From Candidatus Aldehydirespirator sp. (GTDB lineage Bacteria > Actinomycetota > Acidimicrobiia > Acidimicrobiales > Aldehydirespiratoraceae), in NCBI GenBank assembly GCA_965248735.1, contig OZ252146.1:4120756-4184755 (forward strand): DNA of 64,000 nucleotides, read 5' to 3'. Every line of letters starts with the position of its first letter. Position 1 is the stretch's first letter. This document shows positions 48,646 to 64,000 of the stretch, one piece after another. The notes beneath the pieces are model-generated. The model made no database searches. It saw only the letters and a program-made list of their open reading frames with translations, and was not told where the DNA came from. A program made the position numbers and the translations under genes.

Positions 48646-49898
48646 GCGCTTGGAGATGGACGCGCCTAAAGCACCTGGCATCGGGAGCCATCAGAAATGG
48701 CGTCGGTGAACCGGGAGCCTTCGACAACCCTGAATGGCCTAGATACGTTCGAACGACTGATATTGCTGGACCACGCCAACTCAGGGAGGATACATTTGCT
48801 TCACTTCCTCCCAACATTGCAGCTAGGGCTGATCTTCAGCGTGGAGATCTTGTTATGACCGCAGCCGGAGCGACAATCGGTAAGTCGCTGCTCTACGATT
48901 CGGAAGCGCCTGCCTGTTATGCTGGCTATCTCGTACGATTCCGGCCCCGCGCCGATGTTGATATTCGGTTTGTCTCCTACTGGACCGAGTCAAGGCCGTA
49001 TTGGGAGCAACTCGACGCTGGGCGAGTCGTTTCAACCATAGAGAACTTCAACGCATCAAAGTACCGCAATCTGAGGATTCGTGTTCCAGCTACTAACGAA
49101 CAGCGTGCGATAGCTGACTATCTAGATGCCGAAACCGCTCGCATCGACGCCCTCATCTCTAAGAAACGCAGAATGCTTGAACTCTTGGCAGAACGCCGTC
49201 GTGCCTTCGCTATCGCCTTCACCACTGGGGAAGGATGCGGGGATGACTGGACTCCTGGCCCATATTGGCTTAGCCCTGTCCCTCGAACCTGGCAGCCATA
49301 TAAGATTGCTTGGCATAAACGAACGGCGAGTGGGACCACGCCTGACAGTGGTAACTCGTCGTACTATGACGACACTATGGGAGTTCCTTGGGTTACAACA
49401 TCTGAATTACGTGAAACAACGATTCGTGACGCTGCTCGTCGAGTCACGAGCGCTGCCCTCCAGCGATACTCCGCGCTCAAGGTACTACCTGTTGGGGCAG
49501 TACTGATTGCGATGTATGGCGCGACAGTGGGTCGCTTAGGAGTACTGGGGACATCAGCAACGACGAACCAAGCGTGTTGCGCAGTGTATGACGCTGGCGC
49601 CCTTGATCAGCGTTTCCTCTATTGGTGGTTCTGGGCAAACAGAGAGCATCTCATCTCGATGGCATACGGCGCTGGTCAACCGAATATCAGCCAAGATCTG
49701 ATTCGTAGCCTACGCATTCCGGCTCCCGAAATAGGGGAGCAGCGAGAAATCGCGGATCGTATCGAACACGAGGCAGCTCGGATTGAGCGAATTGCGTCTA
49801 AGTTGACCCGTCTTATCGACCTCCTCACCGAGCGGCGACAAACGTTGATTACGGCTGTCTTGACCAGCGAGATGGCGGTGCCTGGGGTGACAGCCTGA
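48642..49898 (+). CDS. hsdS: Type I R-M system specificity subunit
   Basis: ATGA overlap with hsdM; two TRDs each followed by a conserved helix (EQRAIADYLD, EQREIADRIE). Confidence 0.93.
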   Translation: MSAWRWTRLKHLASGAIRNGVGEPGAFDNPEWPRYVRTTDIAGPRQLREDTFASLPPNIAARADLQRGDLVMTAAGATIGKSLLYDSEAPACYAGYLVRFRPRADVDIRFVSYWTESRPYWEQLDAGRVVSTIENFNASKYRNLRIRVPATNEQRAIADYLDAETARIDALISKKRRMLELLAERRRAFAIAFTTGEGCGDDWTPGPYWLSPVPRTWQPYKIAWHKRTASGTTPDSGNSSYYDDTMGVPWVTTSELRETTIRDAARRVTSAALQRYSALKVLPVGAVLIAMYGATVGRLGVLGTSATTNQACCAVYDAGALDQRFLYWWFWANREHLISMAYGAGQPNISQDLIRSLRIPAPEIGEQREIADRIEHEAARIERIASKLTRLIDLLTERRQTLITAVLTSEMAVPGVTA

Positions 49899-49933
49899 AC
49901 ATTCTCTCCGAGGCGATGTTCGAGGCGCATATT
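49895..49933 (+). pseudogene. Remnant hsdR 5' end / left 26-bp direct repeat
   Basis: 49908-49933 CCGAGGCGATGTTCGAGGCGCATATT matches 62183-62208 at 24/26. CTG at 49895 overlaps the hsdS stop and is in frame, at the same 15-nt distance to GAG as the real hsdR GTG. Confidence 0.75.
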
Positions 49934-50031
49934 GCCGTTACGATGGCCCGCAGGCCCAAGCCAGTATTTTCGAATTAGTCCCTTGCGGACTTCCACAGAT
50001 CCTCGTTGAGGCCTTCCACAAGCGGGTGCCC

Positions 50032-53000
50032 CTATTCTGATTCTGCTTCTAAGTCGACAAGTTCGATGAGTTGTTCAACTTCGCAGAGGTGAGTCCCGGC
50101 ATCCCACTCCGATGCGAGGCACTGCGCCACCGATATCCATGCTGATTCGTTGGTGTCTTCTCCAGTCAGGAGTGGTCTGACACACTGTGCTGCGAGACTT
50201 GGTTCTGGACTTGTTACATCCAGTTCCGCCTGTACCCTGGCACAAAAGTAGCCGATGCCGCTCAGCAGTGCATCGGCTACCCGGTCGCCCGACATACTAG
50301 TGAGTTGCTCTCCCGCTGTTTCTAAATTGGAAGAGAATGCTTGGATGGCGTCTTGGATCCTATCATGCGCTCGTTGCTCCTCAGGCAGGTCGTTCACACC
50401 CGACAGTCCTTGCAGCGCGAAGACAGCTTGGTTGAATATGCCGGTGAGTCTGCCTGCGTGTGCCTCAGGTAGTTTGTCCAACCCGCTGGGGTTAGGAGTA
50501 GGCCAAAGATCATTGATCAGGCTGAAGGCCATTCCCGGTACCGGTCGGGTGTTGCGAAGCGGCACGAATAGAAGTGTCTCGTCGGCTCTCTGGTCTTGTC
50601 GGAGAGCAACCATTAGCTTGTGGACCGCTTCATGCCACTCAACGAGCGAATCGAGCGTTACGGATACGCGGTATTCCCTTACGGCGGTCCAGCCGCGGTC
50701 GTAGTCGAATACTCTTGCCTGGAGTCCTGTGTTATAGCAGGTAGACTGGATCTGCTTGAGGCGCTTCTGCTGTCTGCGCTCATTGGTGGCGCGGCATATT
50801 CTTGCGCCTCGTTGCAACGCGCTGGAGGGTTTACCTGATCTAGCGGCCTGCCGGATCTTGCCGATATCGGCATCGCCATTGGCTAGTTCACTGACTACAT
50901 CGCGGAGGTCGTCTAGCGTGGACCTGAGTTCTTCAAGGCTGGGAGGGTAGCCGTCGAGCCCGATGAGTCGCCACTGCTCCCTGAGTGTCCCGGCGAGATT
51001 CTTGCCGATGATCGTGTCGGAGATGTACGCCGTCAGAGCCCGATAGCCATCGGGGCCTTGCAGCCGGAGGAATGCACTGTCGGTGATGTTGAGGATCGTG
51101 GCGGAGAGATTGTCCGTTAGATCTGGGGTTCGTCGCTCCAAGATGGCGGTGTCGCCGATCTGTGTCGTGAGGGCCGGTCGTAGCGCCCGTGCGCATTCGT
51201 GGAGCAATCTGCGTTGCTGGCCTAAGCCGGGACCGGGTGACGATCGCCCGGTTAGAAGCGCAGCGCCCGCACGTTGGACCAGATCGTTTGCTTGGCCAAG
51301 CAGTGGAAGTGCTTCCGTTAGCCGGACCGTGTCCGCTTCACCTACCAGAGCGACAGCAGCCCGGACGCGCGCCTGTGCCCAGGCGACACTGGATGCTGCC
51401 GGGGCGTATTGCCGCTGGAGCCGACTAACGCCGGCGGGGTCGCCGCCTATAGCCGGTTCTAGGTTGCCCGGCCAGAGGGCCTTTATGTCGACGGAAGCGA
51501 TCCGGGGAAGGCACCAGAGAAGGGTCCGCCCCAAGCTGTGGGCCTGCTCCTGCATGTCTCCCTGCACATCGTCTGAGACGTGGAGGAATCGGGCAAACCC
51601 GACCGGGCCATCCTCACCTTCCCGGATCCCTATCTGGGTAATCCACGGGTTGCCGACACGGATGCGCTGGATCAGAGCCTGCTCCCCGCCGACGCCCTCC
51701 ACGAGCGCTTGTGCCACCCGCGGATCGGCGTCGCGCGCCGCGGACATGCAGTCCCTGAGGTCTTCGAGCGGCGCTTCGCGCAGCGCCAACGCGAGCGGTG
51801 AGTCCTGATCGAAGGTGTTCTCTACGGCTCTCGCAAGGTCCGGGCCCGTGTTAGCGAGCGTGGCGAGCAGCAGCGTTGCTCTGCCGGTGTCACTCGCTGA
51901 GGTGAGGAGTTGGGCGATGGCCTCTCGTCCGGCAGCCTCGAGGAGTCCGTCGCGGGAGTCTCGTCCGGGAACGGCGACAAGGGCCCTATGGGCTGTCTGG
52001 AGATCATCTGTGAGGAAATCCGGAGGCTCGCCGCCTTGTACTGCCATAGCGAACAGCGTTGGACGGTTCGTGGGTGGAACATCGTGCTGCTCGGCGACCT
52101 CGTTCCAGGCTCTTGCCAGTTCTTGGAAGTCGGCGAGGCGGAGACCTTGAAGGCACGCAGCGACGCGTTCCAACTCCAGGTCGCCGCTGCCGGCTTGGTC
52201 GGCGACGATGCCACGAGCTTCGGGGTTGTCTTCGAGCATCGCCGCGATGAACCTGTGGAGCTGCGCTGTAGGCACGAGGGGAATCGCCTTCTGGATGGTC
52301 ACGTCGATGGCAGGCGGCGGGAGCGCGTGGACCGCTTGGCAAATGGCGGTGGATCTGAGCCGGTGCAGCCCTCCCATCTGACCGTCCCGCTCAACAACGA
52401 GATGCTCAGTGTCAAGCCGGTCCAAGGCTCTTCGCAGATCGTGATCGGACAGCCCGCAGGCCCGTGCCACATTCGCTGTTGAGACGGTGGCCGACCAGCG
52501 ATCGGCCACCGAGACGAGGGCCAGGACCTTGAGCTCTTGGTCTCGGTTCTCGCGGATGCGCCGCCGGACCTGATCGTCGATCACGTCGCTGAGCCGCTTC
52601 CCTCTCGTAAGGAGGTGTGTGAACTCGAGTGTAAGTCCGCGCGACTGTTCGAAGGCTTCACGCCAGTGGGCGACAGTGGTCGCACCGCTGCCGAAGAGTT
52701 CTCCGTGGATCGTCTCAGCGGCGCGCTCGTCTAGCTGTACGGCGACAGTGGCACATTCCGCCAGGTCGCCGAGGGCCGCCAAATCCTCGTGTCTCGCTGT
52801 CGCCACGACGAACATGCCCGGTACGGCTGCCGCCTCGGCCCGCAGACGTGCCCAGCCCGTGAAGTCGCCCGTGCCAGCAGAATCGACCAGGAATCCGATC
52901 GGGACGCTAGGCGAGGCACAGTAGGCGTGAGCGAGGCGGACGATGGCTGGCACGTCTTCGTCGGCGAGCCGTCGGACACGGAACCAGGCGACGCCCCGAA

Positions 53001-54072
53001 GCTCCGGTTCTCGTGGGATGGTCCACAGGACGGCGCTCTTGCCCACGCCCGACGGGCCGGTAATCACTACAGCGGACCGCTCGCCCAACCCAGACAGAAC
53101 CCTCTCAATGACATCGCCCCGGCGTACGACTAGCCCTGATTCGACGTGGAAGGGTTGAGTGGCAGCGCCCTCATAGAACCGTTCACGGCTGTTGGTGGCC
53201 TCATGGACGCCGTACTCCAGCGGCTCGCAGATGCCCAGATGGATAGCGGCCTCAAGCGACTCAACGTTGACCATTCCCGCGATCCTTGTGATCTCGCTCG
53301 CGAGCTGAGTCCGATCGAGACGTCGCCTTTGCTCGTAGATGGGAGTGTCGTTGTCGTCCGCCGCGCTGGCGAGGAAGACACGGAGCTGGTCGGCGACAAG
53401 GCGCAGGGCCGCCGGGGGCAACTCCAACTGTTCGCTCAGGGCAGCAACGGTCTCGGCTGTGATGTCGTCCCACGAGATGCCTGCGACCACGGTGGACGAC
53501 AGCAGCCGACCGACATCCATCCCAAGCTCACTGCCCTTTTCCTTCAGGCTGTTGAGAAGTTGTGAGCCGTCCACCAGGGACCCTGCCAAGGTCCTATCGA
53601 GATCATGCGACGGGGTCTCCCCCTTTACGCCCCTTTCGAACACGACCACGAGCCTCGACCCCGGCTCGTCCCGACCGGCATGCCGCGCCCACGCGTCCAT
53701 GATGTGCCCGGCCGCCTGGGCTGCTGAGAACAGGCCTAGACGCTCCACCTTCGACTTGACCTGGACATGCCAATGCGTCCCGCCCTCCAGCAACACGTCC
53801 TCCGAACCCTCGGGCACGACTAGGACATTCGGAATGGTCCCCGCTGCCACCTTCGCTGCGAGCCAAGTCACGGCAGCGTCTTGGAAATGGATGCCCCGAC
53901 CGGTCCGCGCCCCATGCCGCTCGCCCTTCCAACGAAGGGCAGGCCCGCTGCCGTCGCTGTCGTCCGTTAGGCCCTCCCCGCCTGGTCCAGCTTCCCGGCC
54001 GCCAGCTCCACGACCTGGAGGGAGCGGCCCGCTGGCCGACTTCCTCCGCTTCTTCCTGCGCTTGCCTGACAC
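50032..54072 (-). CDS. Large PD-(D/E)xK nuclease + STAND P-loop NTPase protein (Avs-like architecture)
   Basis: GRGIHFQD...PEGSEDV...VQVKSK (Cap4/DUF4297-like nuclease); ITGPSGVGKS Walker A; FLVD Walker B; wHTH-like segment; long helical C-terminus. Confidence 0.7.
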   Translation of the reverse strand: MSGKRRKKRRKSASGPLPPGRGAGGREAGPGGEGLTDDSDGSGPALRWKGERHGARTGRGIHFQDAAVTWLAAKVAAGTIPNVLVVPEGSEDVLLEGGTHWHVQVKSKVERLGLFSAAQAAGHIMDAWARHAGRDEPGSRLVVVFERGVKGETPSHDLDRTLAGSLVDGSQLLNSLKEKGSELGMDVGRLLSSTVVAGISWDDITAETVAALSEQLELPPAALRLVADQLRVFLASAADDNDTPIYEQRRRLDRTQLASEITRIAGMVNVESLEAAIHLGICEPLEYGVHEATNSRERFYEGAATQPFHVESGLVVRRGDVIERVLSGLGERSAVVITGPSGVGKSAVLWTIPREPELRGVAWFRVRRLADEDVPAIVRLAHAYCASPSVPIGFLVDSAGTGDFTGWARLRAEAAAVPGMFVVATARHEDLAALGDLAECATVAVQLDERAAETIHGELFGSGATTVAHWREAFEQSRGLTLEFTHLLTRGKRLSDVIDDQVRRRIRENRDQELKVLALVSVADRWSATVSTANVARACGLSDHDLRRALDRLDTEHLVVERDGQMGGLHRLRSTAICQAVHALPPPAIDVTIQKAIPLVPTAQLHRFIAAMLEDNPEARGIVADQAGSGDLELERVAACLQGLRLADFQELARAWNEVAEQHDVPPTNRPTLFAMAVQGGEPPDFLTDDLQTAHRALVAVPGRDSRDGLLEAAGREAIAQLLTSASDTGRATLLLATLANTGPDLARAVENTFDQDSPLALALREAPLEDLRDCMSAARDADPRVAQALVEGVGGEQALIQRIRVGNPWITQIGIREGEDGPVGFARFLHVSDDVQGDMQEQAHSLGRTLLWCLPRIASVDIKALWPGNLEPAIGGDPAGVSRLQRQYAPAASSVAWAQARVRAAVALVGEADTVRLTEALPLLGQANDLVQRAGAALLTGRSSPGPGLGQQRRLLHECARALRPALTTQIGDTAILERRTPDLTDNLSATILNITDSAFLRLQGPDGYRALTAYISDTIIGKNLAGTLREQWRLIGLDGYPPSLEELRSTLDDLRDVVSELANGDADIGKIRQAARSGKPSSALQRGARICRATNERRQQKRLKQIQSTCYNTGLQARVFDYDRGWTAVREYRVSVTLDSLVEWHEAVHKLMVALRQDQRADETLLFVPLRNTRPVPGMAFSLINDLWPTPNPSGLDKLPEAHAGRLTGIFNQAVFALQGLSGVNDLPEEQRAHDRIQDAIQAFSSNLETAGEQLTSMSGDRVADALLSGIGYFCARVQAELDVTSPEPSLAAQCVRPLLTGEDTNESAWISVAQCLASEWDAGTHLCEVEQLIELVDLEAESE

Positions 54073-54257
54073 ATCGCCATCATCGCAGCAGACTGTGACG
54101 TCTGTTTGATCTTGCGCTGACAGTGGTGCACGTGGTCACCCTGGATCGAACGCACCTTGTGGCTCGCCTCGAATGTCGCATCTGCGCTCTATGGTGCTGA
54201 CCACGAACGGGCCGCCAAGGCGGGCGACGCGACGCAGACACTCCCAGGAGACCCCGA

Positions 54258-56282
54258 ATGAGATTGCATCAGGCGAGGGTACGAAACTACCGCAGCATCC
54301 GCGACACCGGTTGGTTCAGCGTGGAGGACGCCAAGACGATCCTGGTCGGGCCAAACGAGGCTGGCAAGACAGCGTTGCTTGAAGCGCTCCGACAGATCAA
54401 CACCACCGATGAGGCGCGAGGATTCGACCCTTTGCGGGACTACCCGCGCAAGATCTACAACGACGACATCCAGTCCGGCCGCTGCGATCCCAGCGACATC
54501 CCCGTCGCCGCTGCCAGGTTCAAGCCTGAGCCCGATGATCTCGATGGGCTTTCTGAGGGCTTCACGAAAGCGACCTATCGCTGCACCCGATATCTCGACA
54601 ACAGTTTCAAGCACAAGATCGAGGGCGGGCCACAGCCCGTCGTCTTTGACGACCGGGTGCGCAAGGATCTGCTACGCATGGCGTCCCACGTCGACAAACA
54701 AACCGCCGACGAGCGGGACGCCGACGAGCAACCTCCCAGCGGCGATCTCGCAGAGATCATCGAGGAGTGGCAGGTAGGCACAACGAAGATTGACGGCGAC
54801 CGCGCAACCGAACTGCAGGAATGGCTCGACTCAATCGGCGTCAAGATAGACGAGAACAACACCACCGAGGAGAACCGCCACAACCGGCTCCTCGAATACA
54901 CACGCATCCCCCAGCAGCGCGCCACGGCTCTTGGTGCGTTCAAGGCCCGGCTACCGGTGTTCGTCTACTACAGCAACTACTTCCGAGTACGCCCCAACAT
55001 CCACCTACGCCGATTCGCGGACCGCACCGAGCATCACCCCCTCGATGACGAGCGTTACGACTACGGGAACCTGTGCCTGCTCAAGCTGCTCGGCTTCACC
55101 GCTCGTCAACTCGCGAACCTCGGGGACGCACCTGACCCCGGGGACGATGCGGACGCGTTCGAGAGCTATCGCGGCCAGCTCGACGAGCGCCGCTTCCAAC
55201 TCAACGCTGCCAGCCTCAGCCTCACTAAGCAGATCAACTCAGCCTGGAACCCCGATCATTCCCGCGCCGAGGCCGACCGGGTGCTAATCCAAGCGGACGG
55301 GCAGTATCTCAAGGTCGTGGTCCAAGATGAACTCGGGGTCGAGGTTGAGTTCGACCAGCGTTCCGCTGGGTTCCAGTGGCTGGTGTCGTTCTTCGTGGTG
55401 TTCTTCGCCGAAGCCCAAGGTGCCCACGCCAACGCCATCCTGCTGCTCGACGAGCCTGGTCTGAGCCTCCACGGTCTCAAGCAGCGCGAGTTCCGTCAGA
55501 CAGTCTCGCAGCTAGCCGAAACGAACCAGACCCTGTACACGACCCACTCGCCGTTTCTGGTCGGCCCTGACGAACTCGATCTGGTCCGGGTCGTGGAGAT
55601 GACCGATCGCGACACCGGGACTGAAGTCCACACCGGCGTCACAGCCGGCGACCCGGCCGCTCTACTGCCTCTGCAGGAGGCGCTCGGTTATGACCTCGCC
55701 CAGAGCCTTTTCGCCCAGCGGCGCAATCTGGTCCTCGAAGGACTGACCGACTACTGGTACTTCGAAGCCACGGCCCAACTGCTACGCGACGCACGCATCG
55801 CTGACCTGAACGACAAGATCGCCTTGATGCCAGCCGAGGGCGCCGGGAAGGTCGTGTACTTCGCCACCATTCTCTACGCCAACAGACTCAAGGTCGCTGC
55901 CCTGCTCGACTCCGACAACGCCGGCGACAACGCTGCCAAGAAGGACACTCTGATTCACGCTCTCGGCTACAACAACATCCTCCGCACCGCCGACGTCTGC
56001 CCCGGCTCGATCACCAAGCCTGAGATCGAAGACCTCCTGCGCGACACCCTCGTCGTCGTCGCCAAGACCGAACTCGGCTGGGACATCACCGAGGTGGCTG
56101 CCAGCCAACCTCGCCGGCCGATCCTCCAGATCTTCAAGCAACAAGTATCTGGCTTTCACAAGTACCCACTTGCGAAGGCATACCTTCGCTGGACACGCGA
56201 CCACACCGCCGACGACCTCACCAGCGGCGAACGGGATGCGTGGAGCGAGCTCATCACCCGGGTCAACAAGGCTCTCAAGTGA
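54258..56282 (+). CDS. OLD-family ATP-dependent nuclease (ABC ATPase + TOPRIM)
   Basis: VRNYRSI, GPNEAGKT, RSAGFQW, LLLDEP, TTHSP; TOPRIM VLEGLTD and LLDSD. Confidence 0.85.
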   Translation: MRLHQARVRNYRSIRDTGWFSVEDAKTILVGPNEAGKTALLEALRQINTTDEARGFDPLRDYPRKIYNDDIQSGRCDPSDIPVAAARFKPEPDDLDGLSEGFTKATYRCTRYLDNSFKHKIEGGPQPVVFDDRVRKDLLRMASHVDKQTADERDADEQPPSGDLAEIIEEWQVGTTKIDGDRATELQEWLDSIGVKIDENNTTEENRHNRLLEYTRIPQQRATALGAFKARLPVFVYYSNYFRVRPNIHLRRFADRTEHHPLDDERYDYGNLCLLKLLGFTARQLANLGDAPDPGDDADAFESYRGQLDERRFQLNAASLSLTKQINSAWNPDHSRAEADRVLIQADGQYLKVVVQDELGVEVEFDQRSAGFQWLVSFFVVFFAEAQGAHANAILLLDEPGLSLHGLKQREFRQTVSQLAETNQTLYTTHSPFLVGPDELDLVRVVEMTDRDTGTEVHTGVTAGDPAALLPLQEALGYDLAQSLFAQRRNLVLEGLTDYWYFEATAQLLRDARIADLNDKIALMPAEGAGKVVYFATILYANRLKVAALLDSDNAGDNAAKKDTLIHALGYNNILRTADVCPGSITKPEIEDLLRDTLVVVAKTELGWDITEVAASQPRRPILQIFKQQVSGFHKYPLAKAYLRWTRDHTADDLTSGERDAWSELITRVNKALK

Positions 56283-56309
56283 CGAGAGCCCTGAACCGTC
56301 GGGCTGGGG

Positions 56310-56456
56310 TCAGGCGGGCTTGGGCCGGCGCCAGCGGCGCCAGAAGAACAATGCCTCGGGCAGTGCCCCCCGATTGACGATGGTGCTCGGGTACGGGCTC
56401 AGCTCGTATGGCCCTCGCCGATGTGGGCTGTCGTCGGACTTGTCGGTCGGCTCCAT
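56310..56456 (-). CDS. Possible 48-aa small protein
   Basis: ATG 4 nt after the stop of the upstream membrane gene; MEPTDKSDD...FFWRRWRRPKPA; no other support. Confidence 0.25.
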   Translation of the reverse strand: MEPTDKSDDSPHRRGPYELSPYPSTIVNRGALPEALFFWRRWRRPKPA

Positions 56457-56460
56457 GGGC

Positions 56461-56943
56461 TCACGCTACTGCTAGGACGGCGGCGATGAGGATGCATGTG
56501 GCGACGAAGCTGATGAAGGCCTGAACGGTGACCCAGAGCCTCACTCGGCGCACGATCGGCTCGTGGCGCTCGTAGTGGTCGCTGAGGGTCTCGACCAAGT
56601 GGTCCAGCAGCGCCGGATAGCCGTTGTGGCGATTGGGGAAACTGCGCACCAGTTGGTCGATCTTGGGGCCTTCGTGCCACGCCACGGGCGCGCTGTGAAC
56701 GGCGACCCAGCACAGGCCGTTGGCGACAGCGATCACCAGCGCTATAACACCGGCGGTACTGGCTTCGAGGCTGCTCGCCTCGACGGCGGGGGACGCCAGC
56801 AGGGCGGTCACGAGAGCACCGATGGTGAGGAACCCGCCGGCAAGCACCGCTGAGCGCTGCTGGTGCGCCGCGAGACGGGCATCCTGCTTGCGGCGTAACT
56901 CGGCCGCCTGGCGCAGGATTTCCTCTCGGGTCTCGATGCTCAC
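56461..56943 (-). CDS. Hypothetical membrane protein (about 3 TM; Pycsar/SLATT-effector-like topology)
   Basis: Two N-terminal hydrophobic helices, a soluble loop, and a C-terminal hydrophobic helix. Confidence 0.6.
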   Translation of the reverse strand: MSIETREEILRQAAELRRKQDARLAAHQQRSAVLAGGFLTIGALVTALLASPAVEASSLEASTAGVIALVIAVANGLCWVAVHSAPVAWHEGPKIDQLVRSFPNRHNGYPALLDHLVETLSDHYERHEPIVRRVRLWVTVQAFISFVATCILIAAVLAVA

Positions 56944-57123
56944 GGAACCATCTCTAGCGGGCTGACTTGATACTTCCTACCTTTCCGATATATTTCCGTA
57001 ACGGCGAATCTGGAGCCATCCCAAGTACATGTGTGGCCAAGGCAGCTAAGGAGGCCGCAAGCCGATTGCCAACCGACGCCCGCGACACATGGACGCGAGC
57101 TTGGAAGCGCAAACGGTACGTGG

Positions 57124-58272
57124 TCACATGACTTCCAGCCGCTCGGCCATGCCGTTGAACGTCGCGAGCTTCTTCAACCCGAGCATCTGGAATGCATCGG
57201 CATAGAGCGTTTGGCCCTCGAGGGTGCTGACGATGACGGACCGGGCGAACCGCTTGCTGACTCGTGCCGGCTGGGTGTTGTAGAAGTCGCCGCCGCCACC
57301 ACCCGCGCCGATCAAATCCATGACGCGTCTGAACTCGGTGCTGTACGCCCGCCGGTAGGCGTCCCACGGGAGATATCCAGCCTCGTGCACCCGGCGAAGC
57401 ACCACGAGCGTGCTCGACTTGAATCGGCGCGCCAGGCGATCGAGTTCGTCCGTGAGGTCTGCACGGGCGTTGAAGTCCGATTGCAGCGCCTCAAGCGGAA
57501 CCAGCACCTCGGCGGCGACTCGGTTGCACCAGCGCTCGACCTCGTGAGTGGCCTGAACGCCTAGATCGGCGTCGGACAGGGCGCTCTCCCCGAGCCAGAT
57601 GTGGGCCAGCTCGTGCGCCAGTGTGAAGATCTGCGCGGCCTTCGTGTCGGCGCCGTTCACGAAGACGAGCGGTGCCAGAGGATCGGTGAGCGCGAACCCT
57701 CTGAACTCGGCGGGGTTGAGTTTGCGGCGGGTGTTGCTTCCCACCACGCCGCTGACCATCACAAGCACACCGCTGTCCTCGGCCTGGTCGCGCAGGTAGC
57801 CGAACGCCTCGGACCAATTCGATCCCCTTTGCTCAATCGAGAACGACATCGCGGCTGTCACTGCCGGGGCCGCCTCGTCGACTGGCGTGGCCGCCGAGAG
57901 CGAACCAACGTAGGGAACCGGGTCTAGTCCGATCCCGCGGGCGTAGTCGCGGTACCAGTCCTGTCGCTGTTGGCACTGGTAGATCGTGTCGAGGAGGTCG
58001 GGACTCGGACGCCTGACGCCTCTATCGCCGACCGTGCGGAGGTCGGGGATGGGAACTTCGTCGTCAGGCGGTGCAGGCAGGAAGAAGTAGCCCACGGGCG
58101 TTCGGGTCGCCCTCGCGAACCCTTCGAGCTGCTTCAACGTGGGCGAGTGCTCGCCGCTCTCCCACTGCTGGAGCTTGGGGAACTTGTCAGCGAGCTCGTC
58201 CGCGCCGAGGCCCGACCGCTCCGCAGCCCACGCGTAGAGCGGCGCGGCCACGTCAACGCGGACAGCCACCAT
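57124..58272 (-). CDS. XRE-HTH + ImmA/IrrE metallopeptidase
   Basis: N-terminal HTH (LQQWESGEHSPTLKQLEGFA); FTLAHELAH (HExxH); EVERWCNRVAAEVL. Confidence 0.9.
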   Translation of the reverse strand: MVAVRVDVAAPLYAWAAERSGLGADELADKFPKLQQWESGEHSPTLKQLEGFARATRTPVGYFFLPAPPDDEVPIPDLRTVGDRGVRRPSPDLLDTIYQCQQRQDWYRDYARGIGLDPVPYVGSLSAATPVDEAAPAVTAAMSFSIEQRGSNWSEAFGYLRDQAEDSGVLVMVSGVVGSNTRRKLNPAEFRGFALTDPLAPLVFVNGADTKAAQIFTLAHELAHIWLGESALSDADLGVQATHEVERWCNRVAAEVLVPLEALQSDFNARADLTDELDRLARRFKSSTLVVLRRVHEAGYLPWDAYRRAYSTEFRRVMDLIGAGGGGGDFYNTQPARVSKRFARSVIVSTLEGQTLYADAFQMLGLKKLATFNGMAERLEVM

Positions 58273-58575
58273 GACCCATTCTGGCCTCGGCTGCGGTCAG
58301 ATTGCAGCATCCTCGTCCGAGTCGGCCGCCCCGGCGGTGTCGGGCAGGACGGCTTGTCCGACGTAACGGTCGTGCGTGGCTACCGTGCGTGTCGTTGGCA
58401 CCCTCGGCATTGCCGCCCCCAATTTGATGGCCCCCCGGCATCTTCGCACAGTGCAGCGACAACGAGAAGCGGTAGGGCGTGTGAAGGCGCCGTGGAGCGG
58501 CCTGCCGCATGCGCCTAGCACGGCGTCTGGTGCGACACAGAAAATGCTTGTCTGGGGCTTGGCCGGCTTGCGGCA

Positions 58576-58622
58576 GCCGATAATCGCTCTTGTGCGATCA
58601 TCGTGTTTGTGCAATTATCGGC
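58576..58622. promoter_or_regulatory. 9-bp inverted repeat upstream of a TA operon (candidate antitoxin operator)
   Basis: GCCGATAAT (58576-58584) and ATTATCGGC (58614-58622), 3 nt before GTG 58626. Confidence 0.55.
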
Positions 58623-58625
58623 CAT

Positions 58626-58949
58626 GTGGCAGAGATTGAGGCTCACGACGAGGTTGTCGATTGGCTGGACGGCCTCACCGACGTCGAGTGGGACCGAACG
58701 GCTGTAGTGATCGATCGCCTCGCGGTGGTCGGTCAGCAGGCACGGATGCCCTTGTCTCGCAGCCTCGGTGACGGGTTGTTCGAGCTTCGGTTCTCGCTGG
58801 GCTCAACCGCTCGGCGGATCACGTACCGGTTCCGCTCGGACGGTCGCATCGTCTTGTTGACGACATTCCGAAAGCAGCGCAACAACGAATGGGCCGAGGT
58901 GGCGAGAGCCCGCAAGGCCGCCGAGCACTGCGCTCGCAACGATCCCTGA
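58626..58949 (+). CDS. RelE/ParE-superfamily toxin (HigB/Gp49-like)
   Basis: VVDWL...SLGDGLFELRF...RITY...IVLLTTFRKQ; toxin-first gene order. Confidence 0.85.
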   Translation: MAEIEAHDEVVDWLDGLTDVEWDRTAVVIDRLAVVGQQARMPLSRSLGDGLFELRFSLGSTARRITYRFRSDGRIVLLTTFRKQRNNEWAEVARARKAAEHCARNDP

Positions 58950-58958
58950 AAGGAGAAC

Positions 58959-59282
58959 ATGATGGCGAACCATTCCCGTTGGGAGGAAATCAAGAAGAGG
59001 CGGGGCGAGCCTTCCTCAGAGGCCCGTGCCGGCGTCGAGCAGGATCTCGCGCTCGGCCAGCTCATTTATGACCTGCGCATCGACGCCGGGATGAGCCAGC
59101 GTGAGCTGGCCGAGTGTATGGGCACCACTCAGTCGGTGATCTCCCGGCTGGAGGAGGGTGGAGGCGCTCGCAATCGGATCGACACGCTCGCGCGGGTGGC
59201 CACCGCCTTAGGCCGACACCTAGTGCTGTCGTTCCCCGCCACGGTTCCCGACCGGCTTGAAGACGCAATCCAGGTCGCATAA
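58959..59282 (+). CDS. XRE-family HTH antitoxin (HigA-like)
   Basis: AGMSQRELAECMGTTQSVISRLE; AAGGAG RBS. Confidence 0.88.
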   Translation: MMANHSRWEEIKKRRGEPSSEARAGVEQDLALGQLIYDLRIDAGMSQRELAECMGTTQSVISRLEEGGGARNRIDTLARVATALGRHLVLSFPATVPDRLEDAIQVA

Positions 59283-59310
59283 CCGGCCGCTCGGCACGAC
59301 CAAGCTGAAC

Positions 59311-59373
59311 TCGGCTAACGGCGGTGGAACGACCCACTCCCGTCGCTTGGGCACGGTGCTCAGCCGGGCGGGG
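59311..59373. repeat. Repeat R2 copy a (fossil of the antitoxin-stop/toxin-start junction at 60804-60866)
   Basis: 57/63 identical by manual alignment. Confidence 0.85.
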
Positions 59374-59422
59374 GCTACTCACCACAGTCCGGAATCCGGT
59401 CGATGCGTCCCGCGACGAGTGG

Positions 59423-59842
59423 CTAGCGCTCTTCGGCGGTCGGGTCTGCAGTCCTGGAGCCAACGAGAAGCTGGACGGGCTCGGCGTCGGGGAATGTCAC
59501 GATGAGCTGGAGTTCGCCGCCGGTTGCTCGGATGAACGAGCGAAGCGTCGACAGGAGCATGTTGCTGCGGTGCTCCAGCCTGGACACCTCCGACTGGTCC
59601 ATCTCCAACAGTTCCGCAATCGTCGCCTGCGTCAGCTCTCGTGCCTTACGGACATGCGCGAGCGTTGTCTGACGCTCGTTGATCTCGGCCAGGACCGCCT
59701 CCATGCGTTCTCGCGCCCGGGAGTCGGCCTTCACCTCGTCATAGAAGGCGTCGGGTGTGATCTTGTGCTGCCACGCGTCAGGAGGGACCTCGCCAATCGA
59801 GGCCTCATCTGCGGGTAGGTGTCTGGGGTGTGCTGCTTCCAT
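59423..59842 (-). CDS. XRE-family HTH antitoxin (start uncertain)
   Basis: RKARELTQATIAELLEMDQSEVSRLE...LSTLRSFIRATGGEL; the listed ATG lies inside repeat R1. Confidence 0.8.
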   Translation of the reverse strand: MEAAHPRHLPADEASIGEVPPDAWQHKITPDAFYDEVKADSRARERMEAVLAEINERQTTLAHVRKARELTQATIAELLEMDQSEVSRLEHRSNMLLSTLRSFIRATGGELQLIVTFPDAEPVQLLVGSRTADPTAEER

Positions 59843-59846
59843 GCCT
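59766..59846. repeat. Repeat R1 copy a (about 80 bp)
   Basis: 69/81 identical to 61349-61428. Confidence 0.85.
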
Positions 59847-59916
59847 GTTGTGCTTCGCCTTTCGTGTTTCGCCTCTTGTGCTTCGCCTTGTCGTGTTGCG
59901 CCTCTTGTGTTTCGGC
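59846..59916. repeat. Five imperfect 14-15 bp tandem repeats in a strand-biased spacer
   Basis: Minus-strand units GCCGAAACACAAGA, GGCGCAACACGACAA, GGCGAAGCACAAGA, GGCGAAACACGAAA, GGCGAAGCACAACA. Confidence 0.8.
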
Positions 59917-60023
59917 GTCTTATGGTTTGACGTTCTCGTCTGGGCTTCTGGTATTGGCGTCTTGTGTGTTTCGGCTTGGGTTGCTGGTGTTGGTTGTTGC
60001 CTCCCTGTAGTCGGCTATCGATC

Positions 60024-60455
60024 TCAGCGGCGAACGATCGGCCGGTAGTCGGGGTGCTGTCGGCACCATTGGTCGAGCCGGTCCTGTGCTTGCTGGACGT
60101 GGGGCGGATACCAGCGGTTGCCTAGTTCGGTCTTGTCGCCGCCTATGAGCACCACCACGGCTTCGAGACCCGTGTCGTCGATCACGAAGCCGAAGAGGAT
60201 GCGCAGCACTGGGGCAGTGTCGGCGTAGGGCGTGGTCGCCGTCGGTGGCGTACGCCGCAGCGCGTGGATGTCGTAACGCGCAGTGACCACTTCGTGGCAC
60301 TCCGGGTCGCCGAGGCCGCGACCATGAGACTCAAGAGCCCTCAAGAGAGCCGCGATTTCCGCTCGAACCTCCCACCAATCGACCGTGTCGCCCGCCTCGC
60401 CATCAGCAAGTGACCTCAGCCACCTGTCGAAGAGAGGATGGAAGAACAGTTCCAC
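60024..60455 (-). CDS. RelE/ParE-like toxin (atypical, longer)
   Basis: FDRWL...VLRILFGF...VLIGGDK...RWY motif; upstream of the XRE gene. Confidence 0.7.
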   Translation of the reverse strand: MELFFHPLFDRWLRSLADGEAGDTVDWWEVRAEIAALLRALESHGRGLGDPECHEVVTARYDIHALRRTPPTATTPYADTAPVLRILFGFVIDDTGLEAVVVLIGGDKTELGNRWYPPHVQQAQDRLDQWCRQHPDYRPIVRR

Positions 60456-60503
60456 AACATGCAGTCTAGCACATATTCAGCTCTTCACGATCGAATCGTC
60501 GCC

Positions 60504-60847
60504 CTACTCCGTCGCCTTCGGGTGGCCTGTGTGCGCTTCGGTCACCCAAACAGTCTTGGTGACGTCATCTATGCAGTACCAGATCCGTCCGCCTGCCGTG
60601 ATCTCGTACTGCCACTGCTCCATCTCCACCCCGTTCAGCGAGCGCCGTCCTAGCGAGCCCTTCAACGGATGCTGGCGGTCCCCACGCCGACGCCGGTCGC
60701 TCGTGATCACTTCCCATGCGGTCCGAGCGTTGCCCCGTGAGGTGGCGCAGAGCTGCTCCCATCCCGGGCCGCGTCGTTGGTCGCGAAGCGGAAGTCCCAG
60801 CCTTCGGCTGACGGCGGCGGAGCAACCCGCTCCCGTCGCTTGGGCAC
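60504..60847 (-). pseudogene. RelE-like toxin with a -1 frameshift
   Basis: VPKRRERVAPPP...FATNDAAR in one frame and GWEQLC...QWQYEITAGGRIWYCID in another; a G is missing in CGGG at 60763-60766; span 344 nt = 3n+2. Confidence 0.75.
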
Positions 60848-60866
60848 GGTCCTCAGCCGGGCGGGG
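60804..60866. repeat. Repeat R2 copy b
   Basis: Matches 59311-59373. Confidence 0.85.
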
Positions 60867-61308
60867 CCGGGACCGGATCGCCGGCTGCCTCCAACGGTTC
60901 GACGAGGCGACGCGCGAGCCCGGGATCTGCATGTATCTCGGCGGTGGCCTTCCACTCCCGCACCAGTTGAGCGACCGGCTCGTAGTTGTCCATCGAGACC
61001 GCCCCAAGCAGCGTCGGGATGAGCTCCTCGGCGAACAGATCCCGATCCTGTTCGGGCAGGAACTCCACCCACGCGAACGCATCTCCCAGCGCCGCGCCCA
61101 GCGCCACGGGACTGTGGGCCGCGACGTTGCGCAGCAGCCGCGCGCAAGCCTCGAAGGCTTCCGAGCGGCTCTCGTGGCGATCCGCCCGGCTCAACCGCAG
61201 CGCGGGCGCGTTGCGCCGCCGTAGCAGCACATCACACCCAGTCAACTCGACCACCACCTCGTTCGGCCGGCGCAAGAACTCGGAGAACGGGCGCTCGATC
61301 AATTCCAT
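60853..61308 (-). CDS. Phd/YefM-like actinobacterial antitoxin
   Basis: PFSEFLRRPNEVV...VLLRRRNAP N-terminus; WVEFLP...EWKATAEIHADP C-terminal domain; directly upstream of the toxin. Confidence 0.75.
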   Translation of the reverse strand: MELIERPFSEFLRRPNEVVVELTGCDVLLRRRNAPALRLSRADRHESRSEAFEACARLLRNVAAHSPVALGAALGDAFAWVEFLPEQDRDLFAEELIPTLLGAVSMDNYEPVAQLVREWKATAEIHADPGLARRLVEPLEAAGDPVPAPPG

Positions 61309-61314
61309 ACACGA

Positions 61315-61342
61315 AAAATAGCTGCGTTACTTCAGAAGTCAA
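61315..61342 (-). promoter_or_regulatory. Sigma-70-type promoter, leaderless-type
   Basis: TTGACT (61342-61337), N16, TATTTT (61320-61315), N6, ATG 61308. Confidence 0.6.
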
Positions 61343-61348
61343 TCCCTC

Positions 61349-61428
61349 TGCTGCCACCCGTGAGGGTGCACCTCGCCAAGCGAGGCCTCGTCTGCGGGTA
61401 GCTGTCGGGGGTGTGGCGCTTCCTGCCT
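61349..61428. repeat. Repeat R1 copy b
   Basis: Matches 59766-59846. Confidence 0.85.
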
Positions 61429-61487
61429 ACACTCGGCCTCACTCCGCTGAGGTTTCCGCCCGTGGGCGATAGAGGAGGAGCAGCGAT

Positions 61488-61766
61488 ATGGAGCGCAAGG
61501 GTCAGGTAGCCAGGCCCGACGGCAAGCTCGTCGGCCTGTGGGCCAAGATCGCCGTCTCGCACGCGACGGTCCGCAGCATCAACGACCCGGTCGGGGCCGT
61601 CGCCACCGTCGCCGGCATCGACGGGGCGTGGGGTTTCGGCACTTCCACCGAGCAGGCCCTGCAGGACTTGGAGTCGGTGCTCATTGATTGGGCCACCCTG
61701 AAGCTCGAGGACGGCGACGACGACATCCCCAGCATGGAAGGCGTGCATCTCGCCGTACACAGATGA
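61488..61766 (+). CDS. hicB: HicB-family antitoxin (short form)
   Basis: VAGIDGAWGFGTSTEQALQDLESVLIDW...DDIP; GAGGAGGAG RBS. Confidence 0.8.
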   Translation: MERKGQVARPDGKLVGLWAKIAVSHATVRSINDPVGAVATVAGIDGAWGFGTSTEQALQDLESVLIDWATLKLEDGDDDIPSMEGVHLAVHR

Positions 61767-61993
61767 ACCGCAGGCTCGCACCGGTCACGCGGGACGACCT
61801 TGTCAAGCGGTTCAGGAGGCTTGGCTGGGACGGCCCAAGACACGGCGCGAGGCACAGTTTCATGGAGAAGGGGACACGGAAGATCCGCATCCCGAACCCC
61901 CATCAGCGCAAGGACATCGGAGTGGGGCTGCTCGCCACGATCCTAGAGCAGGCCGGGGTGTCCCGCGATGAGTGGCTCGATGCCTCCAGATAA
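61763..61993 (+). CDS. hicA: HicA-family toxin
   Basis: ATGA overlap with hicB; GARHSFM...IPNPH..DIGVGLLATILEQAG. Confidence 0.88.
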   Translation: MNRRLAPVTRDDLVKRFRRLGWDGPRHGARHSFMEKGTRKIRIPNPHQRKDIGVGLLATILEQAGVSRDEWLDASR

Positions 61994-62169
61994 TGACGTG
62001 TGCTGGGACGGTGGCATGCTGGCAGTGTCGCTGTAGGGGCAACGGACGACCTCGGCTCGGTTGCGGGAAGAGAACCGGGCGACAGCCTCCTGCCTCGGCG
62101 CGGATCATGGCTTGGGAGGCGTGGCTTTAGGATGGGTTGGACATTGGGGCCGTAGAGGAGGGTGGCGGC

Positions 62170-64000
62170 GTGAGTTCTGTCACCGAGGCGGCGTTCGAGG
62201 CGCATATTTCTGGCTGGCTGGTCGAGCACGGCGGGTATCAGCGCGTGAAGATCGGCAATGTCGGGGACGGGCCGCGGGACTTCGACGCTAAGGCGGGCGT
62301 CGACACGGCCGACCTGTTCGAGTTCATCGGTGCGACTCAGGGGCCCGAGTGGGAGCGACTCGTGGACTCGGCCTATGGCGGCGATCCGAACCGGGCGCAG
62401 TCCGGGTTCGTGCAGCGGCTGGCTGCGGAGCTGGACAGGCGGGGCACGGTGGATGTGCTGCGCCACGGTGTCGTCGACCGCAACATCACGATCCGGCTGG
62501 CGTTCTTCAAGCCCGCCCATGGGCTGACGCCCGAGCTTGCCGCCCGCTACGAGGCCAACGTGCTGTCGGTGACCCGGCAGCTGCCCTTCGATCCGTCCGG
62601 CGGCCGGACTGTCGATCTAGGACTGTTCGTGAACGGGGTGCCGGTGGCGACCGCCGAACTGAAGAACCCGCTGACGGGCCAGAGCGTCGAGAACGCCGTC
62701 GCCCAGTACCGAGCCGACCGTCCGCACAACAACCGGACTCTGGGCCGGGTGGGCATGGTGCACTTCGCTGTCGATCCGTCCTCGGTGATGATGACCACTC
62801 GCCTGGCCGGTGCCCGCACCCGGTTCCTGCCGTTCAACCGGGGCTGCGATCTCGGTGCGGGCAACCCCCCGAATCCTGACGGGCATCGCACGGCGTACTT
62901 GTGGGAGCAGGTGTGGAGCCGCGACGCCTGGATGGACATCCTCGGACGCTTCGTTCATGTGGAGAAGCCGTCGAAGGGATCGCGGGCCCGCCCAGAAGTG
63001 ATCTTCCCAAGGTTCCACCAATGGGACGCCGTGCGGCGCCTGGAGGCCGACGCCAAAGAGCGCGGAGCGGGCCGCAGCTACCTGGTGCAGCACTCCGCGG
63101 GGTCGGGCAAGTCGAACTCGATCGCCTGGCTGGCGCACCGGCTGTCGTCGCTGCACTCCGCCGACGACGCCAAGGTGTTCGACAAGGTGGTGGTCATCAC
63201 CGATCGGGTCGTGCTCGACCGACAGCTTCAGGACACCATCAGCCAGTTCGAGCACGCCGTCGGGGTGGTGCAGCGCATCGACGAGTCCTCCGCTCAGCTC
63301 GCTGAGGCGCTGACCGGAGAGCAGGCCCGCATCATCGTGACCACGCTGCAGAAGTTCCCGTTCATCTTCGACAAGATCGGGTCGCTGCCGGAGCGCGACT
63401 ACGCGGTGATCGTCGACGAGGCCCACTCTTCACAGACCGGCGACGCGGCCAAGGAGCTGCGCCGCGCCTTGGGTTCGGCCGAACCCGAGGTTGAGGCCGA
63501 CGGCGATGTGGAGCCGACCGACGCCGAGACGCTGCTGGCCGAGGCGGTGGCCGCCCGAGGACGGCAGCCCAACCTGTCGTTCTTCGCGTTCACCGCCACC
63601 CCCAAGGGCCGAACCCTGGAACTGTTCGGCGAACTCGGCGCCGGCGGCCGCCACGAGCCGTTCCATCTGTATCCGATGCGCCAGGCCATCGAGGAGGGCT
63701 TCATCTGCGATGTGCTGGCCGGCTACGTCACCTACAGCCGGTACTACCACCTGGAGAAGGCGATCCTCGACGACCCCTCCTATGACACCGGCAAGGCCCG
63801 CAGCGCGCTGGCCCGATTCGTGACCCTGCACCCCGACAACCTGGCCCAGAAGGCCGAGATCATCGTCGAGCACTTCCGCACCAAGATCGCCCGACAGGTC
63901 GCCGGGCGGGCCAAGGCGATGGTGGTGTGCTCGTCACGACCCCACGCGGTGCGCATGTGGCGGGCGCTGCGGAGCTACGCCGCCGACCTGGGCTACGACC
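62170..64000 (+). CDS. hsdR: Type I restriction endonuclease subunit R (runs off window)
   Basis: Manual translation from GTG 62170: VDLGLFVNG...ELKNP nuclease, HSAGSGKS, ITDR, IVDEAHSSQ, FTATPK; AGAGGAGG RBS; not in the ORF track. Confidence 0.95.
   Translation, partial: MSSVTEAAFEAHISGWLVEHGGYQRVKIGNVGDGPRDFDAKAGVDTADLFEFIGATQGPEWERLVDSAYGGDPNRAQSGFVQRLAAELDRRGTVDVLRHGVVDRNITIRLAFFKPAHGLTPELAARYEANVLSVTRQLPFDPSGGRTVDLGLFVNGVPVATAELKNPLTGQSVENAVAQYRADRPHNNRTLGRVGMVHFAVDPSSVMMTTRLAGARTRFLPFNRGCDLGAGNPPNPDGHRTAYLWEQVWSRDAWMDILGRFVHVEKPSKGSRARPEVIFPRFHQWDAVRRLEADAKERGAGRSYLVQHSAGSGKSNSIAWLAHRLSSLHSADDAKVFDKVVVITDRVVLDRQLQDTISQFEHAVGVVQRIDESSAQLAEALTGEQARIIVTTLQKFPFIFDKIGSLPERDYAVIVDEAHSSQTGDAAKELRRALGSAEPEVEADGDVEPTDAETLLAEAVAARGRQPNLSFFAFTATPKGRTLELFGELGAGGRHEPFHLYPMRQAIEEGFICDVLAGYVTYSRYYHLEKAILDDPSYDTGKARSALARFVTLHPDNLAQKAEIIVEHFRTKIARQVAGRAKAMVVCSSRPHAVRMWRALRSYAADLGYD
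62183..62208 (+). repeat. Right 26-bp direct repeat (hsdR 5' coding region)
   Basis: CCGAGGCGGCGTTCGAGGCGCATATT. Confidence 0.8.

Follow-up and report, generated by a model that had tools for sequence, protein, structure and literature searches.

A duplicated hsdS/hsdR junction bounds a gap filled with variable defence-family genes in a type I restriction-modification locus of sponge-associated Acidimicrobiia

We analysed a 64,000-nt window (positions 4,120,756 to 4,184,755) of the single-contig, 4.19-Mb genome of Candidatus Aldehydirespirator sp. (contig OZ252146.1, hereafter G000), in which hsdS and hsdR of a type I restriction-modification (R-M) system stand some 12.3 kb apart, with putative defence and toxin-antitoxin (TA) genes between them. 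The gap is bounded by two copies of the hsdS/hsdR junction, one at the start of an intact hsdR and the other a short hsdR 5' stub fused to the end of hsdS. In our view the arrangement probably goes back to an old opening of hsdMSR at this junction by duplicative recombination, after which the gap would have become a long-lived sink for defence and TA genes that was remodelled piece by piece. The gene order is aldehyde dehydrogenase and thiolase (core genes), hsdM, hsdS, a gene for a STAND-like NTPase, an OLD-family gene, a gene for a 160-amino acid (aa) protein, a helix-turn-helix (HTH)-M78 gene, TA genes and hsdR, with at least 10 open reading frames (ORFs) between hsdS and hsdR, and both flanking genes are intact and on the plus strand (Table 1). 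Eleven other genomes of the same genus were compared with G000, the congeners bearing the system being counted as 12; the records of the relatives are from sponge-associated Acidimicrobiia named Candidatus Aldehydirespirator and allies.

The left junction carries the 26-mer CCGAGGCGATGTTCGAGGCGCATATT (49908-49933) and the right junction the 26-mer CCGAGGCGGCGTTCGAGGCGCATATT (62183-62208), which start 12,275 nt apart and agree at 24 of 26 positions, the two mismatches being adjacent. The positions and the match are those given in a first-pass annotation of this DNA, and the homology proved to be longer than the 26 nt reported there. Both 26-mers lie within 49 nt of homology (49885-49933 versus 62160-62208, 78% identity, repeat family D4) that take in ~14 nt from the end of hsdS and 39 nt from the hsdR start, and the longest perfect run shared by the copies is 16 nt. 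Chance similarity between the copies was ruled out by the local alignment score of 45, compared to 14.8 ± 2.3 (maximum 23) for shuffled sequences, and by uniqueness in the genome, which holds the two copies and no third at up to four mismatches. The hsdS frame ends with TGA (49896-49898), overlapped by a CTG at 49895 to give CTGA, and an ATG at 49916 is in frame with this CTG, both as first described. On either side the repeat sets in 13 nt past the respective codon (the left-hand CTG or the hsdR GTG at 62170), so that the equal offset claimed for the two sides holds while its value, put at 15 nt, does not. Translated, the left frame reads LNILSEAMFEAHIAVTMARRPKPVFSN up to a stop, as compared with VSSVTEAAFEAHISGW in HsdR.

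Pfam, PADLOC and NCBIfam searches of the ORFs in the block detected neither an integrase nor a transposase domain, in line with the earlier statement that the block lacks an integrase. Genome-wide, 16 tyrosine-recombinase (PF00589) matches exceeded the Pfam cut-off, the nearest being >270 kb away. Scans for tRNA genes and Rfam families were empty, so that no tRNA-type att site is involved, and a search of the G000 gap for further fragments of hsdR, hsdS or hsdM found none. A transposon target-site duplication was also considered and rejected, as the repeat is imperfect and, at 49 nt, long, the ends lack terminal inverted repeats and the G000 gap lacks a transposase.

By their domains the flanking genes belong to the type I R-M class, with HsdM, a two-region HsdS and an HsdR with nuclease and SF2 motor all present. 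HsdS ends in RQTLITAVLTSEMAVPGVTA, a conserved C-terminal helix that aligns with the hsdS ends of relatives. G000 encodes a single hsdM and a single hsdR, and the identities of the two genes co-vary, at ~89-94% for both in the 11 congeners and ~70%/69% in G049, a member of another family. These observations, together with the contiguous loci of relatives, indicate that hsdM and hsdS in the window have the downstream hsdR as their cognate partner. Contiguous hsdM-hsdS-hsdR is present in G049, L081 and L102, where the hsdS stop overlaps the hsdR start at sequence homologous to the repeat; the G049 junction, GGGGTGGCGGCGTGA (stop/GTG overlap GGGGTGGCGGCGTGAGG), includes 14 nt identical to 62160-62173. 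The upstream sequences of L100 and L122 also read as contiguous hsdS-hsdR junctions. Because distant relatives are contiguous and have their stop/start overlap at exactly the repeat sequence, the ancestral hsdM-hsdS-hsdR operon was evidently coupled and was opened at the hsdR start, which is what the first-pass annotation had proposed from the window by itself. It had singled out two points on which this proposal turned, the junction in cargo-free relatives and the family of the downstream hsdR; cargo-free relatives do join hsdS and hsdR at the repeat, and the hsdR is of the cognate system.

The left stub is old. Spacer alignment identified orthologous hsdS-stub-STAND junctions in L128, L130, L131 and L132, with stubs that have accumulated more substitutions and indels, and from an hsdR-like start decay has taken a different course in each of the four. 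GTGAGTTCTG is retained in L128 and L130, which have changes at 8 of 25 core positions, and L131 and L132, which share the CTGAGCA-type start of G000, have changed more or acquired indels further along. L128 has the identities of an ordinary congener (hsdM 91.5%, hsdR 90.8% and thiolase 92.8%) and the locus at the same syntenic site, and L132 has an hsdM only 76% identical to that of G000. Since orthologous and more decayed stubs are present in four other lineages, the hsdS-stub-STAND junction evidently predates the divergence of the L128, L130, L131 and L132 lineages, and the stub behaves like a pseudogene fragment. The same stubs do not fit a recent origin of the target duplication that had first been proposed. 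In congeners without the STAND gene, the 0 to 21 nt past the hsdS stop are still similar to an hsdR start (GTGAGT in G020, ATGAGTCCTGT in G024 and ATGAACTCGGCTACCGA in G005), and such short stubs are expected if replacement of the cargo trimmed the stub up to the hsdS stop, which is protected by selection. A blastn search of the congeners with the G000 left junction returned no equivalent stub, pairwise alignments being significant in G000 only; in G005, G020 and G024 the remaining hsdR-like sequence measures 3-21 nt.

On the right side, a leader of 31 to 90 nt ahead of the hsdR GTG is conserved in all congeners, and the sequence further upstream differs. TAGGAT lies 37-42 nt before the hsdR start, and TAGGAT, TAGGGT or TAAGGT recurs in the homologous leader region of many lineages, so hsdR may have a promoter of its own in the leader, of the TANNNT type of actinobacteria. 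A scan of both junctions with an E. coli-type consensus found no promoter-like site, and a terminator scan of both gave a single terminator-like match, inside the hsdR coding region. Leaders with hsdS-like last codons (GTGACGGCTGATG or GTGGCGGCGTGA, read from the sequences) occur through much of a 37-row subclade of the HsdR tree. It had been suggested that the incoming block supplied hsdR with a replacement leader and ribosome-binding site; the homology of the leader across this subclade, with the hsdS-like last codons kept, argues against such an origin.

The gap between hsdS and hsdR is a genuine cargo hotspot. Within the genus the locus sits at a single syntenic site, flanked by the thiolase gene and ilvC/ilvB, and the distance from the end of hsdM to the start of hsdR ranges from 4.9 to 17.5 kb in the 12 congeners, which carry differing cargo between the same ~90%-identical hsdMS and hsdR. 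This cargo includes Avs2 (G022, G033), IetA/IetS (G024, G005, G034), PD-Lambda-5 (G020) and an AbiJ-like gene, as well as transposase-like ORFs of ISL3-, IS256- and IS3-like insertion sequence (IS) elements (read from the sequences; ISL3 Pfam domains in L129). The earlier suggestion of a landing pad for swappable cargo is well founded in that the same flanks hold different defence genes in other genomes. The accompanying picture of a single incoming block of 12.3 kb does not survive the comparison: positions 56300-62169 match the gaps of congeners at 76-88% nucleotide identity and positions 49934-56299, with the STAND and OLD genes, have no nucleotide match in the 11 compared, so that only the right ~6 kb is common to congeners and the whole is a mosaic. 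L128 has the STAND gene, but in this genome DUF7380 replaces the OLD gene and DUF4411 the 160-aa gene. Beyond the genus, a sponge-associated clade of 50 rows in the HsdR tree (100/100 support) has 47 rows in which hsdS and hsdR are not contiguous, the exceptions being L081 and outgroup-like contiguous rows (three in all); in the non-contiguous rows hsdM was found upstream in part only, and the gap there measures from ~2 kb upward.

The first-pass annotation also raised the possibility of a switch. In a working switch, recombination between the repeats would delete or reinstate the cargo and toggle hsdMSR between a coupled and a split state. The geometry would permit it, the repeats being direct and in register, and a deletion would rebuild an hsdS-hsdR junction with hsdR starting at the CTG or at ATG 49916, although the rebuilt gene would lack a canonical start. 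The contiguous L081 among split loci indicates that loss of the gap may have occurred at least once in evolution, a weak argument that is silent on programmed switching. The copies have no perfect identity longer than the 16-nt run, the repeat is not conserved (orthologous stubs being decayed or cut to 0 to 21 nt), no dedicated recombinase is present and no empty hsdS-hsdR site was found among the 12 system-bearing congeners, all of which makes a switch extremely improbable.

Evidence on how the junction may have been duplicated comes from other genomes, four of which contain independent duplications of the hsdR 5' end. In L078, an 818-nt segment comprising vapB, vapC and nucleotides 1-76 of hsdR is present twice (94% identity), and between the copies lie a hicB-like gene and a second hsdS of which only the 3' half is present. 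In L090, the first 268 nt of hsdR, preceded by a leader of their own, lie 1.2 kb upstream of the functional gene (255 nt at 87%), the stub frame is open for 90 codons, and the single 293-aa gene between the copies is fused to a different hsdR start. L111 has the reverse arrangement, a decayed stub (67 nt) behind the 3' end of a homologue of the L090 293-aa gene and a functional hsdR with the leader that in L090 belongs to the stub. Finally, L083 has hsdR fragments of 47 and 34 nt. The duplication boundaries differ among genomes (+39, +54, +76, ~+80 and +268), and no recombinase was found among the ORFs listed between the copies in L078 and L090. Detectable hsdR fragments in the gaps are 5' ends only; a search for other parts of the gene in 63 upstream regions gave only AlbA_2-domain paralogue-like matches. 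The close relatives L085, L087, L088, L090 and L111 have a mosaic hsdR start: over its first 150 nt, identity is 8-13 percentage points lower than over the next 1.6 kb, and grouping follows the upstream module and not the remainder of the gene. In L090, this part of the stub clusters with the leader-A alleles of other genomes and not with the hsdR of L090 itself. These independent 5' duplications with other boundaries suggest that homology-anchored or illegitimate recombination has recurred at the start of hsdR, and the varying boundaries and lack of a recombinase between copies argue against a site-specific att mechanism.

The same data bear on an integrase-borne island inserted at the hsdR 5' end, comparable to dusA elements or SXT in prfC, that would have provided a new 5' end and promoter, left attL/attR repeats and later lost its integrase. 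Such elements resemble the present locus in that they insert in the 5' end of a gene, displace the old 5' end and restore the gene with a new upstream region, but they bring a dedicated integrase, a directionality factor and a fixed att core, in contrast to the missing recombinase, varying boundaries and decaying left copy seen here (PMC8409611). Imperfect direct repeats do flank the cargo in G000, and the at least 16 tyrosine recombinases of the genome could in principle act in trans. However, there is no recombinase at an end of the element, in the G000 gap or between the younger L078 and L090 copies, the nearest PF00589 match being that at >270 kb; the junction copies (78% over 49 nt) have no fixed identical att core, and the differing ends of the duplications leave no core in common. 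The partial hsdS between the L078 copies instead indicates recombination between hsd loci. We therefore consider an integrase origin quite unlikely.

A second, imported hsdR may alternatively have replaced the original, the stub being a remnant after deletion in tandem or stacked type I systems. In keeping with this, the first 13 nt of the stub differ from the functional gene as alleles do, a state common to L131 and L132, L078 has its second partial hsdS in the gap, and the L090 and L111 stubs have another leader or allele than the functional copy. However, no other hsd fragment was detected in the G000 gap and hsdM and hsdR are equally diverged from those of congeners, which makes this alternative rather unlikely as a separate explanation, and it largely overlaps with the allelic-recombination version of the duplicative opening.

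Duplicative recombination would thus have opened the coupled operon before G000 split from its congeners and from more distant lineages (hsdM 76-91%). What remained would be, on the left, a dead 5' piece of hsdR joined to the hsdS stop (49895-49933) and, on the right, an intact hsdR that has a ribosome-binding site of its own, retains the final codons of hsdS and is preceded by a promoter-like leader (62080-62169). The gap would then have accumulated defence and TA genes, and would have been remodelled by homologous exchange anchored in hsdMS, the M78 gene and hsdR, by illegitimate joins and by IS elements. For the duplication itself, one possible route is recombination with another hsd allele, of the homology-facilitated illegitimate or the Campbell type, in which a homologous crossover within hsdR is paired with a second that is illegitimate or falls where a short patch of homology ends; the duplications in other genomes favour this route. 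The other is that the junction underwent a short tandem duplication and later received insertions, which would produce the same picture in G000. Homology-facilitated illegitimate recombination, known from Acinetobacter and Streptococcus, combines one homologous anchor with one illegitimate join. It would be expected to yield a retained recipient 5' stub, donor cargo and an intact gene that is a donor-recipient hybrid, and its involvement in these uncultured bacteria is suggested by the structure of the locus only.

Several observations weigh against this reconstruction. The core of the G000 repeat is better preserved (2 of 26 positions differing, at the low tail) than in the orthologous stubs (8 of 25-27), which could reflect gene conversion or a more recent refresh of the G000 stub. 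The homology of the leader to hsdS is secure for ~14 nt, the ~45% identity further upstream not being significant, and the promoter is proposed from conservation only. The resident and the incoming copy are indistinguishable by sequence. In addition, the contiguous L081 (OZ253443.1) is nested inside the split clade of the HsdR tree, representing either a retained ancestral state, with several independent splits around it, or a secondary re-fusion; a history with L081 nested among split loci would not be a single clean event.

Table 1. Features of the hsd locus and its gap in the window (nucleotide positions; for hsdR also beyond the window end)
Feature	Position	Strand	Evidence and remarks
hsdM, 672 aa, type I methyltransferase subunit	46627..48645	+	Pfam N6_Mtase 1.9e-58, HsdM_N 1.5e-26; congener orthologues 89-94%
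hsdS, 418 aa, specificity subunit	48642..49898	+	Pfam Methylase_S in two stretches; ATGA overlap with hsdM; ends in CTGA
Left junction repeat	49885..49933	+	Last 14 nt of hsdS and 39-nt pseudo-5' end of hsdR; stub 49895-49933, with a possible decayed continuation to ~49950
STAND-like NTPase, 1346 aa, uncharacterised family	50032..54072	-	Weak AAA_16 match only; convergent with hsdS
OLD-family ATPase-TOPRIM nuclease, 674 aa	54258..56282	+	Pfam AAA_15, AAA_21, OLD-like_TOPRIM; PADLOC Old 2.4e-22, AriA, GajA; PDB 6p74 OLD, 8ee4 PtuA
160-aa protein, function not assigned, downstream partner of M78 gene	56461..56943	-	Cluster c10; most congeners have DUF4411 here (c8)
HTH and ImmA/IrrE M78 metallopeptidase, 382 aa, RmrA/CapP-like	57124..58272	-	Pfam Peptidase_M78 1.5e-15; PADLOC capP, RmrA
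Gp49/HigB-like toxin (58590-58949) and XRE-HTH antitoxin (58959-59282)	58590..59282	+	Pfam Gp49 1.6e-11, HTH_3 2.9e-9; NCBIfam RelE/ParE, Y4mF antitoxin
Gp49-like toxin (60024-60455) and HTH_37 antitoxin (59423-59842)	59423..60455	-	Region common to G020, G022, G024, G033
DUF6247 protein (60853-61308, -) and UPF0150/HicB-like antitoxin (61488-61766, +)	60853..61766		Domain search
Conserved hsdR leader	62080..62169	+	-10-like TAGGAT 62128-62133; Shine-Dalgarno GGAGGG 62157-62162; hsdS-derived GGGTGGCGGCGTGA 62160-62173
Right junction repeat	62160..62208	+	Alignment with left copy
hsdR, intact, 1157 aa	62170..64000, on to window-equivalent 65640	+	Pfam HSDR_N, ResIII, SWI2_SNF2; open full frame

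The cargo of the G000 gap is predicted to act in defence, its defence-family matches in PADLOC being the OLD/AriA/GajA-like and the RmrA/CapP-like proteins. The STAND-like protein had no sequence match in PADLOC, NCBIfam or the PDB. Homologues numbered 232, the closest of which (79-83% identity) came from the protein database and belong to five other assemblies, and a search across the order (300 genomes) found distant homologues only. Its gene is convergent with hsdS at a distance of ~100-130 nt in L128, L130, L131 and L132, and in L129 IS elements lie between the two. The OLD nuclease is of the stand-alone class 1 type, with the ATPase preceding the TOPRIM domain and neighbours that are neither a UvrD helicase nor AriB (DUF4435), and the gene is absent from the gaps of the compared congeners, save for an OLD-like gene in G011. 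The M78 gene forms the conserved core of the gap, being present at 84-88% nucleotide identity in 8 of the 11 compared congeners; fragments of it occur in three further genomes, G020 has none, and the protein is 91% identical (aa) in L128. While this gene stays, its partner is swapped, a PIN-like DUF4411 protein in L128 (L128:6221-7860; Pfam) taking the place of the unrelated 160-aa protein of G000, G011 and G024; in G033, G022 and G030 the partner is a 164-165-aa protein of cluster c8, read as the DUF4411 family. An M78 gene with swapped partners resembles the RosmerTA-type antitoxins, which are paired with variable toxins.

The TA array on the right side of the gap, with three or four TA pairs, contains further repeats. 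Two pairs of direct repeats, 59311-59373/60804-60866 (63 nt, 90%, D3) and 59766-59840/61349-61423 (75 nt, 85%, D2), have their members ~1.5 kb apart and bracket different antitoxin genes, and the 75-nt element is also found in the gaps of G030 and G033. Between two opposed TA modules, positions 59834-59919 hold four tandem-like copies of a 14/29-nt unit (TTGTGCTTCGCCT..., D1). In one subclade outside the window a vapBC pair is translationally coupled to hsdR, the vapC stop overlapping the hsdR ATG as ATGA (L078:9313-10004), so that an addiction module precedes the restriction subunit; the same coupling is assigned to L080, L087, L088 and L093 by upstream-sequence similarity only. HsdR itself ends in a SLFN_AlbA_2 (Schlafen/AlbA_2) domain (window-equivalent ~65100-65640) that is kept in orthologues, as seen in the Pfam lists of L128 and L129. 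To our knowledge, such a fusion is unusual for a type I restriction subunit. The G+C content is 0.54-0.58 over 48400-51000, a stretch with hsdS and the 3' portion of the gene for the STAND-like protein, as compared to 0.66-0.74 in the flanking core genes. Just 3' of hsdR, an ilvB (acetolactate synthase) fragment of ~180 codons lies on the minus strand (window-equivalent 66347-66895; genome C1:4187102-4187650), ~3.3 kb from the intact ilvB (70130-71944), and is a second partial gene copy beside an inserted block in this region.

That type I R-M loci can have defence genes embedded in them has been established before, and the junction scars are the new detail. Non-hsd defence genes flanked on both sides by genes of a single intact type I system have been described for PrrC in EcoprrI and TgvAB in Vibrio cholerae VPI-2 (PMC11411939; PMC12707154), and a ‘guilt-by-embedding’ survey found embedded cargo to be diverse and mostly not mobility genes, leaving the significance of embedding ‘to be explored’ (Payne et al., 2024; bioRxiv 10.1101/2024.01.29.577857). 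The G000 locus belongs to the embedded-cargo class of that survey, having foreign genes, defence families among them, between same-strand subunit genes that are not pseudogenes. It differs from the PrrC, TgvAB and Payne et al. loci in that a duplicated hsdS/hsdR junction bounds the gap, which is occupied clade-wide, with independent duplications of the hsdR 5' end. How cargo enters is not addressed in the PrrC, TgvAB and Payne et al. papers. Integrase-free hotspots such as the E. coli immigration control region also have variable defence genes between conserved anchors and no resident mobilising activity, and in both cases replacement presumably occurs by flanking homologous recombination (PMC12707154). 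In contrast to the E. coli region, the anchors here are subunit genes of a single R-M enzyme, placing the hotspot inside a functional unit.

Taken alone, the window is a modest result, an old scar and not an active mobile island or switch, and the clade-wide pattern is of greater interest. Embedding in R-M, BREX and similar loci now serves the discovery of immunity genes. In this clade the same hsdS|hsdR gap is filled in dozens of sponge-symbiont genomes, with hsdR 5' stubs of differing age and length as scars of the opening and of later events, which yields a testable model of integrase-free, homology-anchored duplicative recombination at the hsdR start. A more speculative extension, to which we give a small chance, is that the hsdR start (codons for xEAAFEAHIxGWLVEHGGY) serves as an integrase-free docking sequence for modules that carry their own first ~40-270 nt of hsdR. 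If so, entry would take place inside the recipient hsdR start, the old 5' end would be pushed upstream as a stub and cassettes would be stacked before an always-intact hsdR, so that the gene of a restriction enzyme would contain a capture system based on homology. The uncharacterised genes embedded in these gaps, such as the 1346-aa STAND-like family adjoining hsdS, are candidates for new defence functions.

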